Assembly (NCBI GenBank): GCA_963797555.1
Contig: CAWCPV010000003.1
Location: 1-64,000, forward strand
DNA length: 64,000 nucleotides
Source of the DNA: an uncultured Gammaproteobacteria bacterium
GTDB lineage: Bacteria; Pseudomonadota; Gammaproteobacteria; CAWCPV01
Direction of reading: 5' to 3'
The number at the start of each line of letters is the position of its first letter. Within the stretch, counting starts at the first letter, position 1. A program made the position numbers and the translations under genes. Below are positions 44,601 through 52,379 of the stretch, piece by piece. The notes below the pieces were generated by a model that was not told the DNA's origin, ran no database searches, and saw only the letters and a list, made by a program, of their open reading frames with translations.

Positions 44601-47441
44601 TCAGAAATCAGAATCCGCCAGGGACACCACCACCCGAAACCCCAGGGCGTAGCCGAAGCTGCCGGGATGATCCCTGCTCCGGTAGGCGCAGCGCGCGACC
44701 CTGCGGTCGCTGCTCCAGGAACCGCCGCGCACCACGCGCGGGCCCTCCGCCTGCGGGTCCTCTCGCCCGTCCTCGGCCGATACGGGTAATCCCGGTAGAG
44801 GCTCGCCGTCCACTCCCAGACGTTGCCGGAGAGGTCGTGGATGCCCTGCGCCGTGGCACCGGAGGGATAGACGCCCACCGGGGTCGTCCGCAGCACGCGC
44901 CCCTCGGCGGTATTGGCCCGCTCCGGACTCCAGCGGCGTCCCCACGGGTAGCGCCCTCCGCGGGGGTAGCGGGCGGCGCGCTCCCAGGCCGCCTCGCTGG
45001 GGAGGGCAACGCCCTGCCCCGGCGCGAGGGGCGGCTGCGCGGCGTCCCCCGCCGCCCGCCACCGGTCCTGGAGCCACAGGCAGTACGCGCGCGCCTCGAA
45101 CCAGGTGACGCCCACCACCGGCTGGCAGGGGTGGTTGAAGGGCGCGTCGTCCCAGTAGGTCGGCCGGTCCGCGGGGCGACTCCCATAGGACTTTTTCATC
45201 TCTCGGGCGAAGTCCTCCTCGTCGAGAGCCAGAGCGTCCTCCCAACGGGCCACGATCTGATGACTCCAGCCCTGCTGCCCAGCCGGCGCGGGTTCTCCTT
45301 CAGCCAGCGCCATAGGTCGATCAGGTCCTCGACCGCCTGGCTCTTCAGCTCGCCGCGCCGCCAGGCCCGAGCCTGGGCGTCGGCCACCAGCGCTCGTCCT
45401 GGTAGCCCCCCGCCTGCCAGAAGCAGGCGTACTCGGCATTGGTGACCGGGTAGCGGCCGATCCAGAAGGCCGGAAGCGGGACCTGGCAAGGGGGGAACTC
45501 GTCGCCAGCCGGCACCTTCGAAAGCCGAAGCCGGAGCAGCTCCCAGAGGCTCGAGCCCACCCGAAAGGCGCCCGCCGGCAGGGGCACGAGGGGCCGCAGC
45601 AGCACCCGCTGCCCGTCCACCGCGAGGGCCTGGAAACGCGGGTCGCCCAGGCTGCCCAGGGCTTCGCCTGCGGCGATGCGGTGGCGCAGGTGGACCTTGC
45701 GGTTCCCCATCGCCGCCAGCAGGTCGTTCTGGACGCCCTGGACCTGGCCCGGGTCCGCCGCCGCGCCGACCTCCGACAAGCAGCGGGCGGCGAGCACCGG
45801 GTTCGCCCGGCGCACCGCCTCGACGAAGGCGCCAGCATCTTCCGCGAGGCCCGCGGCCAGCACCGTCGGCTCCTCCCACCCCGTGGTCGGCGGCCCGGGC
45901 AGCGGCTCGTCCGGCCCCAGCGGGCCCGGATCGGGCATCTCCCGGACAAGCCTGCGCTGGCGCCAGCGGGGGGCGAGGTCCTCGCCTTTGGCGAAGCGCG
46001 AGAGCAGGGCGCGCGCCGAGAAGTACTCCTGGAGCTGGTGGTGGTAGAAACGAAGCTGCTCCTCGGCGCGCGCGTCCCGCTCGCCCTCGCGCCGCGGCTC
46101 CACCTCGGTGTCCAGCAGGGTGGCCGCGAGCCCCAGGCGCTCGACGACCGCCGGGGCAACGTCCACCGGGCCGTCGGCGGTCTCCACCGTCCGGGGGATG
46201 CGCTGCCGCGCCTCTTTCCGCGGCAGCCGCACACCCGCCCCGAAGGGCTGCAGGGTCTCGGCCAGACCGGAGAGCGCCATGGCGAGGGCTTCTTCTCCGG
46301 GCCAGTCGGGGTGGTTGCGGTCGTGCTCCCGGGCGAGCAGCAACCTGACGAAGCCCTTGAACAGGGCGGCGCGGCTCCGCGGCCAGTCCCCGCCTTCCTT
46401 GACCAGGGCCGCCAGCATGGCGAGATACCAGGGATTGCGCACGAGGTCGAGCAGCGGGCTTCCCTCCAGCCTGCCCCAGGCCTCCCCGGCGAGCTCCGAG
46501 GTCAGGTAGCGGGCGAGAAAGGTCTGCACCCGAGGGTCGTCCAGGCGCTCGATCTCTACCTGAGGCAGCCCGAGGGGCTCGCCGTAGTCCCGGCTGCGGC
46601 AGGTGACCACCACCTGGTTGCCCGGCCGCTCGGCGAGCTTTGCGATGAAGCGGCGCCACTCCCCCACCCGCACGCGATAGTCCCGCTCGTCTTCGAAGGG
46701 CATCTCGTTCAGGGCGTCGCAGAGCAGCAGGACACCGCCGCCGTCCACCCGCGCCTGCAGGTCGGCGGTCCCGACCCACTTCCACTGCGCCTCCAGCAGC
46801 TCGTGGGGGGAGCGGTAGCCGCGGTAGTCGGCGAGCGGCAGGAACACCGGGAACGGCCCCTGCCCTTCCTCCAGCCGGCGGCGCGCCGCCTCCAGCGCCA
46901 GACGGTACAGGGTGGTGGTCTTGCCGGCCCCCGGCTCGCCCAGAAGCGCCACGGCGTGGTGGCGGCCGAGCGCCTCGGCCACGTTCTCCAGGCGCACGCG
47001 CTTCACCTGGCGCTGGGGCCCTTCCCCGAGCACCTGCAGCTCCGTGTACTCGGGGGCCAGATCCTCGCTGGTCAGCATCCCGGCCAGCGGCACGAACTGG
47101 GTCGCCCAGCGCCCGTAGCGGGGGCTCACCAGCATCGCGGCCAGGTAGGCCCGTTCGTCCCCCTGTCGGGCGGCGGCCGGCCAGAGGTCGGACGCAGCCT
47201 CCCTGGAAAGGGTCACCTGGGGAGCGCCGGGTGCGCTGACCATCAGGAGCCCCCGCGCGGGGTCCGCCTGGAGGGTCGCCTGGCGATCGGCGAGCATCTC
47301 CCGCAGGACGGAGAGGACTTCGTCGAGCTGCTCCGGGCTGAAGGGGCCAAGACGGAGGTTCAGGTCGCGGCCGATGACCGTGCCGGCCTGCACCGGCCCC
47401 GCGTAGATGGCCCCGCCTCCCGTGTCGATTCAATCCGGCAT
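44601..47441 (-). CDS. DGR target 1: NACHT NTPase + FGE-sulfatase (C-type-lectin fold) domain; frameshifted, in-frame TGA at codon 4
   Basis: [72 protein letters not shown]-terminal IDTGGGAIYAGPV. Confidence 0.88.
44622..44738 (-). repeat. DGR variable repeat VR1
   Basis: 117-nt match to TR with 14 substitutions, all opposite TR adenines. Confidence 0.95.

Positions 47442-52379: not shown

Follow-up and report, generated by a model that had tools for sequence, protein, structure and literature searches.

Does the locus described here hold a working diversity-generating retroelement (DGR), or the remains of one? The window, a stretch of 64,000 nt (positions 1 to 64,000 of contig CAWCPV010000003.1, GenBank assembly GCA_963797555.1) from an uncultured gammaproteobacterium, contains a cassette in which a reverse transcriptase (RT) gene, the avd gene and an adenine-rich template repeat (TR) lie between two target genes, each ending in a variable repeat (VR). 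A sequence-only reading had described the element as a complete DGR. The element is a genuine two-target DGR that was clearly active in the past, but in the deposited sequence the reading frames of RT and of the two targets are broken. It is a chromosomal DGR of the type that diversifies NOD-like receptor (NLR)-like sensors, and we consider it likely that the frame breaks are mostly errors of the assembly.

Organization of the cassette and its repeats

A repeat search revealed three copies of an approximately 130-nt sequence in the window (nt 44612-44741, 47654-47783, and 49478-49607), all read on the minus strand. From high to low coordinates, the order on that strand was target 2 with VR2, RT, avd, TR, a non-coding spacer of approximately 260 nt, and target 1 with VR1 (Table 1). 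The middle copy, which is rich in adenine, starts 25 nt past the avd stop codon and was therefore taken as the TR. The placement of two NACHT-FGE targets on either side of RT-avd-TR, as given in the sequence-only reading, was confirmed by Pfam domains and by the minus-strand order; the range of 44601-49604 proposed there took in RT, avd, TR, and target 1 but omitted the body of target 2, which extends to nt 52379.

The TR core measured 120 nt rather than the 117 nt reported earlier, and the count of 25 adenines was exact. As had been noted, VR1 differed from the TR core by 14 substitutions, all 14 opposite TR adenines, with no other difference. In VR2, all 12 substitutions were opposite TR adenines and no other substitution was present; of the 12 to 13 differences previously counted, the thirteenth is an extra base at nt ~49515-49517, within an AAC AAC AAC (NNN) stretch. 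Non-adenine substitutions, to which the earlier reading had pointed as a check on adenine specificity, thus numbered zero over 120 + 118 nt of core, and the chance of 26 of 26 substitutions falling on adenines is about 2e-18 by composition alone. The two VRs also differ from each other (WSSDRRV versus WDDDRWS, as stated before). These 26 adenine-only differences are the record of past independent homing into both targets.

In the target frame, the 25 TR adenines are distributed over 15 codons, ten of which are Asn codons (AAC or AAT), and none can become a stop codon. The coding capacity amounts to 4^25 = 1.1e15 DNA variants, in agreement with the figure of about 1e15 calculated earlier, or approximately 3.3e14 peptide variants per target. 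The VRs cover positions ~204-254 of the 255-position Pfam FGE-sulfatase profile, the C-terminal part of the CLec-type domain; FGE has been described as a CLec subtype (PMC10907252). A 22-nt A-free, GC-rich stretch is common to the TR and both VRs and is followed by a 10-nt end in which TR and VRs diverge, beyond which TR and VR sequences are unrelated. By its sequence, this shared end followed by divergence would correspond to the initiation of mutagenic homing (IMH)/IMH* arrangement, which has been described for nearly all DGRs (PMC5758913).

Table 1. Coordinates of the DGR cassette in the window and of further DGR material on other contigs (C) of the genome
Feature	Position (nt)	Strand	Description
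IMH-like end + CTG heptad array, VR1	44585-44621	-	CTGG..TCTGA..TCTGA..TCTGG..TCTGA; holds stop codon
Target 1	44601-47393	-	N-terminal region, NACHT NTPase, C-terminal FGE-sulfatase (CLec-type); three -1 breaks
VR1	44622-44741	-	120 nt; 14 substitutions, all at TR adenines
Spacer 3' of TR	47545-47653	-	Presumed structured part of DGR RNA: 9-bp hairpin within two outer helices
TR 3' end, IMH*-like	47654-47663	-	10 nt; 4/10 positions unlike both VRs
TR	47654-47783	-	Core 47664-47783, 120 nt, 25 A
avd	47808-48155	-	115 aa, intact open reading frame
RT	48227-49386	-	TTG start at 49386, TAG stop at 48227-48229; two +1 frame breaks
IMH-like end + CTG heptad array, VR2	49450-49486	-	CTGG..TCTGT..TCTGA..TCTGG..TCTGA; holds stop codon
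Target 2	49466-52379	-	N-terminal coiled region, NACHT/AAA_16 NTPase, C-terminal FGE-sulfatase (CLec-type); three breaks
VR2	49487-49605	-	119 nt; 12 substitutions at TR adenines, +1 extra base
Further DGR-type RT/Avd/TR sets	C4 ~373.5-378.5 kb, ~520.4 kb; C6 ~61-62.7 kb; C14 ~7.8-9.3 kb, ~227-229 kb; C20 ~50.9 kb		

Target proteins

Target 1 matched Pfam NACHT (3e-12) and the FGE-sulfatase profile, positions 5-67, 70-201, and 204-254 of which fell in three different open frames. Target 2 matched NACHT (8.8e-6) and AAA_16 (5.6e-7), with its FGE-sulfatase match divided between a frame holding positions 9-142 (3.9e-24) and a frame holding positions 151-246 (1.7e-12); in the corrected frame it ends at a TGA codon, nt 49466-49468. 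The bodies of the two proteins shared 25% identity over 520 aa, which bears out the earlier description of targets that are divergent outside the VR and share one template.

A 181-nt direct repeat with 99% identity was observed at nt 52306-52486 and 53328-53508, spanning codons 1-24 of target 2 (MEEKD[N/D]...) plus 107 nt upstream. The second copy, immediately below a gene with a caspase domain, forms the start of a short reading frame that appears to be broken; the repeat may represent a duplicated promoter and N-terminal module.

Frame breaks in the deposited sequence

The element is not complete as deposited, contrary to the sequence-only reading: avd alone is intact, and eight single-base frame breaks are distributed over RT (two), target 1 (three), and target 2 (three, one of them inside VR2), so that open frames for RT and both targets were lacking. 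RT is divided over three frames by +1 breaks at ~48934 (GACGT[T]CCGACAG) and ~48585 (a GGGG run), and target 1 into four pieces in three frames by -1 breaks at ~45385, ~45270, and 44773. The target 2 breaks are located at ~50290 (+1), ~49806 (-1), and ~49515-49517 (+1), the last being the VR2 extra base.

In relatives, the same genes are continuous. The N-terminal, middle, and C-terminal pieces of RT abut in one frame in all 72 of the 80 best related loci that hold all three, and programmed frameshifting was rejected for this reason. Orthologues of target 1 (loci L028, L030, and L050) and of target 2 (L030, L082, and L072) are encoded in a single frame, and where the middle piece of target 1 matches them, its orthologues keep to the frame of their remaining pieces. 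All eight breaks fit single-base changes, no in-frame stop codon is present in the corrected frames, and similarity to the relatives is undiminished past each break.

Frame breaks were also found throughout the genome. A codon-model Viterbi scan for same-strand frame switches without a nearby stop codon gave 722 candidates, or 16.8 per 100 kb over the 4.30 Mb of coding sequence, with at least one in every 50-kb bin (96 of 96), whereas a closed control genome of the same class (68% GC, 400 kb scanned) gave 12 in 358 kb (3.35 per 100 kb), a density one-fifth that of the source genome. Splits outside the DGR were verified with Pfam in an alpha/beta hydrolase gene and a TPR-CHAT gene, each divided over two frames, and in the nSTAND1-WD40 gene next to target 1 (nt 42227-44476, plus strand), in which nSTAND1 profile positions 1-175, 165-330, and 333-378 fall in three frames, indicating two breaks; the WD40 part of this neighbour ends after about one repeat. 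For the candidate break at ~2223, which follows a PrsW protease domain, the second frame had no Pfam match. At nt 3000-7000 the codon-model path flips frame or strand every few dozen codons, unlike in the rest of the window; non-coding or foreign sequence, or an especially high error rate, may account for this.

Contigs of four marsh-metagenome runs (X1 to X4), from related populations 90-99% alike, were compared with the cassette. They added a base at 44773 (X1 and X2) and dropped one at 48934 (X1, X2, and X4), thereby restoring the frame at both sites, and the contigs covering 48934 in three runs were all in frame. Contigs spanning ~48585, 45270, and 45385 carried 2, 1-2, and 2 gaps, respectively, somewhere along the piece. 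The eight breaks are most probably, for the greater part, errors of a long-read-type assembly, in which case the element would be intact and probably active in the organism. Its function in the living cell hinges on this origin of the breaks, which we consider likely.

Several observations weigh against this explanation. Among the marsh contigs listed, those informative on the breaks cover two of the eight sites and may belong to another strain, and none covers the three breaks of target 2, the VR2 extra base included; at 44773, the extra base accounts for a depth of only 6.4 of 28.1 in X1, the remainder of which may represent paralogues or agreement with the window. Models for rpoB and rpoC found no match in the 84.6%-complete, 20-contig assembly, and uvrA and gyrB therefore served as frame controls; uvrA, a second uvrA-like copy, and gyrB, together approximately 8 kb, had no break, as compared with eight in the approximately 7.8 kb of the cassette. 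The cassette is break-rich relative to the genome mean (five breaks detected by the scan in 7.8 kb, P ~0.011), and the sensitivity of the scan, which recovered 40 of 60 simulated indels, was measured on the single control genome and not on the source. Natural VR indels opposite AAC have also been reported (Wu et al., PMC5758913).

The control genes, the local break density, and the X1 depth that does not restore the frame at 44773 would all suit a real, recently dead DGR, with true frameshifts in RT and both targets and the adenine-only VR differences as fossils. Such a loss would also be in line with the presence in the genome of a decayed sister cassette, on contig C2, and of five or more other TR-like repeats, since redundancy of this kind could relax selection. 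Death of the element is nevertheless unlikely, because all eight breaks are single-base changes, nonsense codons and larger deletions are absent, no substitution has accumulated in the TR/VR cores outside adenines, and similarity to relatives holds past the breaks; candidates of the same type occur in every bin of the genome at five times the control density, the site at 48934 is in frame in every covering contig of three runs, and the truly decayed C2 cassette looks different, having lost RT, avd, and TR and having truncated targets.

An intermediate case, in which most breaks are assembly errors but the VR2 extra base is a real by-product of error-prone reverse transcription opposite AAC, would leave target 2 with its last ~15 residues scrambled in this cell line. 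The extra base could be real, since VR indels opposite AAC are known and one frame-shifted VR was reported along with them (Wu et al., PMC5758913), and since it lies inside the NNN stretch. The other seven breaks, however, also involve single bases, and we regard a separate origin for the extra base as improbable.

Attribution of the breaks mainly to assembly has a bearing on the use of such records: a reading of the raw sequence found the element complete, yet three of the four cassette genes are out of frame in the deposit, and genes broken in this manner would be overlooked or cut short by automated gene and DGR callers. With frame-break candidates genome-wide, gene calls from this genome record need care.

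Reverse transcriptase, Avd, and RNA spacer

The middle piece of RT carries the motif PIGNLTSQ and an FVDD box. In a sequence search against PDB, by which the lineage was assigned rather than by a tree with reference DGR RTs, the N-terminal piece matched 8ub7_A at 1.3e-23 versus 2.2e-5 for the best group II intron RT, and the middle piece matched it at 8.1e-9 versus 0.0045. The chains of entry 8ub7 are named "Reverse transcriptase" and "Avd", and we take the entry to be the Bordetella phage RT-Avd complex. Clustering with group II or retron RTs, which the sequence-only reading had singled out as an outcome contrary to its proposal, was thus not observed. Pfam gave only weak RVT_1 matches to the RT pieces, 0.049 and 0.0033, under the cut-off, and would not by itself have identified the RT. 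An insertion of 13-14 aa was observed at RT residues ~30-45 (nt ~49230-49270), after the KRG motif, where the solved DGR RT has none; in most of the 80 listed relatives the N-terminal match extends over 121-134 aa versus 147 in the query, and a related marsh contig that crosses this insertion shows no length change there.

The avd product matched the NCBIfam equivalog DivGenRetAVD (3.9e-29, 101 bits versus a cut-off of 80), Pfam bAvd (1.9e-18), and the PDB chains 4dwl_A (0.0036) and 8ub7_B, "Avd" (0.022). Paralogous gene ends kept alike by gene conversion beside an unrelated retroelement are hardly credible as an explanation of the locus: the nearest named NCBIfam model for the RT pieces is indeed a group II intron RT/maturase, but that library contains no DGR RT model and its matches, at 54.9, 31.3, and 13 bits, stay far under the cut-off of 300, the match of the N-terminal piece to the solved DGR RT surpasses that to any group II RT by some 18 orders of magnitude, a DGR Avd is encoded between RT and TR, and all substitutions fall on the adenines of one copy.

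DGR RTs need a structured RNA after the template. In the spacer 3' of the TR, a fold of 24 pairs common to six cassettes (the window, L028, L030, L046, L050, and L055) was predicted by RNAalifold, with compensatory changes in five pairs and none broken in the hairpin, which agrees with this need. The single-sequence fold of the avd-TR-spacer RNA was not significant (z = -1.4), and with only six sequences the conserved fold is a lead and not a finding. An Rfam search of nt 44000-53000 (E up to 1) returned a chance miRNA-like match only and no RNA family on the TR or the spacer.

A CTG heptad array following the VRs

To our knowledge, recognition of the recipient site by DGRs is poorly understood outside the Bordetella phage. 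In the window, the stretches after VR1 and VR2 are identical at 34 of 37 nt and carry CTG motifs, mostly TCTGR, spaced by 7-8 nt; no such array is present 3' of the window TR. Within the cassette, the non-coding flanks of both targets are thus near-identical despite the divergence of the proteins, whereas between cassettes the flank differs and the periodic motif stays, even across phyla. This pattern, a motif kept and confined to VRs, is consistent with a cis element under selection by which recipients are marked and the TR is left alone.

In the related loci, a chain of at least four CTG (6-10 nt apart, within 80 nt after the repeat) followed 54 of 68 VRs, and a chain of at least three followed 63 of 68. 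For TRs of these loci the corresponding counts were 0 of 56 for chains of four and 1 of 56 for chains of three; a chain of four occurred in 1.2% of random windows from the same loci. The spacing was 7 nt in 171 of 273 steps. Over the whole 5.35-Mb genome, both strands, only two arrays of at least four TCTGR were found, one after VR1 and one after the relic VR on C2; the VR2 array consists of three TCTGR and one TCTGT. The idea that the array merely supplies stop codons in all three frames after VR indels was rejected, because many arrays are built of TCTGG, TCTGT, or TTTGG and are free of stops.

In the Bordetella phage, marking of the recipient is ascribed to the IMH plus a hairpin/cruciform (PMC5758913), and GC-rich inverted repeats follow only 34% of DGRs (Wu et al., PMC5758913). 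The DNA after VR1, VR2, and TR in the window gave no significant or shared hairpin or cruciform (z = -1.2, +1.5, and -0.6, respectively). We put forward, as a tentative proposal that may well fail, that an array of 4-7 CTG, mostly TCTGR, with 7-nt spacing marks the recipient site 3' of the IMH on the coding strand in a large clade of cellular DGRs, replacing the Bordetella hairpin/cruciform. The array would be the cis element by which the homing machinery tells VR from TR, perhaps as a landing pad for a protein or ribonucleoprotein or as a pause site for replication or transcription. No description of it was met in the full-text literature searched, including the text of PMC10907252 and PMC5758913, with supplements and non-open papers lying outside that search. 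A VR-only signature common to dozens of cellular DGRs is a testable candidate for the recipient-site signal and the part of this analysis most worth following; orphan or remote VRs could also be located with it at little cost, as with the C2 relic in this genome.

Proposed mechanism

By analogy with the Bordetella phage model, an RNA spanning the 3' end of avd, the TR, and the structured spacer would be copied by an RT-Avd complex, with random bases being inserted opposite the 25 template adenines. The resulting complementary DNA would then replace the last ~120 nt of the FGE/CLec-type domain in either target, and recipients would be distinguished from the TR by two features that only the VRs carry, an IMH-like end and a CTG heptad array. 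In the marsh runs X1, X2, and X3, contigs match the sequence on either side of VR1 but leave out nt 44647-44714, exactly the span with its 14 variable positions, a faint indication that VR1 may vary from one population to another.

Other DGR material and gene neighbourhood

The search for remote VRs suggested by the sequence-only reading was run on the whole genome, and the repeat matches were TRs or VRs of other cassettes, apart from the relic on C2. There, at ~189600-193400, a decayed sister cassette was observed, with a gene that resembles target 2 (33% identity) and terminates in a VR-like repeat; about 830 nt past this repeat lies a fragment 62% identical to target 1 residues 18-368, and no RT, avd, or TR is present between the two truncated target remnants. 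The repeat region, C2:191377-191506, has an IMH-like end and a TCTGR array as in the window, but 15 of its 32 mismatches to the window TR are at non-adenine positions, and the window TR is therefore not its recent rewriter.

A cassette at ~376 kb on C4 is likewise flanked on both sides by an FGE target, and the adenines of its TR account for 17 of 18 mismatches with one VR and 22 of 23 with the other; a late frame break seems to be present in the RT of this cassette. Adenine-rich TR-like repeats were also found at ~520 kb on C4 and on C6 and C14, and RT and Avd homologues were encoded on C4, C6, and C14.

Upstream of target 2, nt 53367-62710 (minus strand) form an island of the conflict-system type with two caspase (Peptidase_C14) genes and CHAT, TPR, and AAA_16 domains, several genes of which are split over frames; a further TPR-CHAT gene is located at nt 23285-26444. 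Beside the island, nt 37454-39358 (minus strand) encode a protein resembling a phage tail sheath (sheath C-terminal domain, 5.9e-20), which hints at a contractile injection system or a prophage remnant, and nt 39854-41821 (plus strand) encode a protein with five PASTA domains.

Relatives and comparison with known systems

Scanning of species-representative genomes with the RT N-terminal piece gave 431 confirmed relatives. The best 80 of these were kept and were mostly from Chloroflexota (Anaerolineae, Caldilineaceae, Ardenticatenaceae, Promineifilum, and Levilinea), and they also included Candidatus Contendobacter, a KSB1 metagenome-assembled genome (MAG), and a Cytophagia MAG. Among the related loci, 26 measured at least 14 kb; of these, 25 had adenine-biased TR/VR pairs and four (L030, L037, L050, and L082) had the exact order of the window, VR-RT-avd-TR-target-VR. 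The 40 nearest genomes compared, which share only the class, yielded three weak matches to the C-terminal open reading frame of RT and no orthologous cassette from a near relative.

Sister cassettes, unannotated, are present in public MAGs of Candidatus Contendobacter sp. (L028 and L030) and of Chloroflexota (L050). The L030 cassette shared 69%, 82%, and 75% identity with the N-terminal, middle, and C-terminal pieces of RT, respectively, 65% with Avd, and 56% with target 2, while target 1 was 59-60% identical to its orthologues in L028, L030, and L050 over ~673-680 aa. They resemble the window in the order of genes and repeats and in having CTG arrays and the spacer hairpin, but differ in that all genes are in a single frame and RT lacks the 13-14 aa finger insertion (133 aa matched versus 147). 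The presence of close cassettes in Contendobacter, a gammaproteobacterium, and in Chloroflexota indicates that the whole cassette has moved between phyla.

The mechanistic prototype is the DGR of Bordetella phage BPP-1, with the order mtd-avd-TR-brt. The window shares with it adenine-specific transfer from TR to VR, the Avd partner, a VR at the C-terminal end of a CLec-type fold, the GC-rich shared end followed by IMH/IMH* divergence, and the order avd-TR-spacer, and the RT motifs align with those of the 8ub7 RT, including PIGsLTSQ..ANVY. It differs in that RT lies upstream of avd and not after the TR, that the targets are two cellular NLR-like proteins instead of one phage tail fibre, and that the CTG heptad array takes the place of a shared hairpin/cruciform 3' of the VRs.

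Two targets occur in 13% of DGRs (Wu et al. 2018, PMC5758913). The closest described systems by domain architecture are the STAND-NTPase/CLec DGRs of multicellular bacteria designated clade 5D, such as DGR 3 and DGR 6 of Thiohalocapsa PB-PSB1 (Dore et al. 2024, PMC10907252). This class is known from filamentous or aggregate-forming bacteria; its members are set among conflict-system genes and have been proposed to diversify antigen sensors, and DGR 3 has duplicated NACHT-CLec targets (PMC10907252). A repeat array after the VRs is not mentioned in the text of that paper searched, the supplements lying outside the search. Like these DGRs, the window has two targets, each with a central NACHT and a single C-terminal FGE/CLec domain, one TR, several DGRs in the genome, and neighbours with caspase, CHAT, TPR, nSTAND1, and WD40 domains; it belongs to another host lineage, its RT relatives are mostly from Chloroflexota, and the likeness is one of architecture. 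Two-target NACHT/CLec DGRs have thus already been published (PMC10907252), and the window adds another member to this class of hypermutated NLR-like "antigen sensors" of bacteria.

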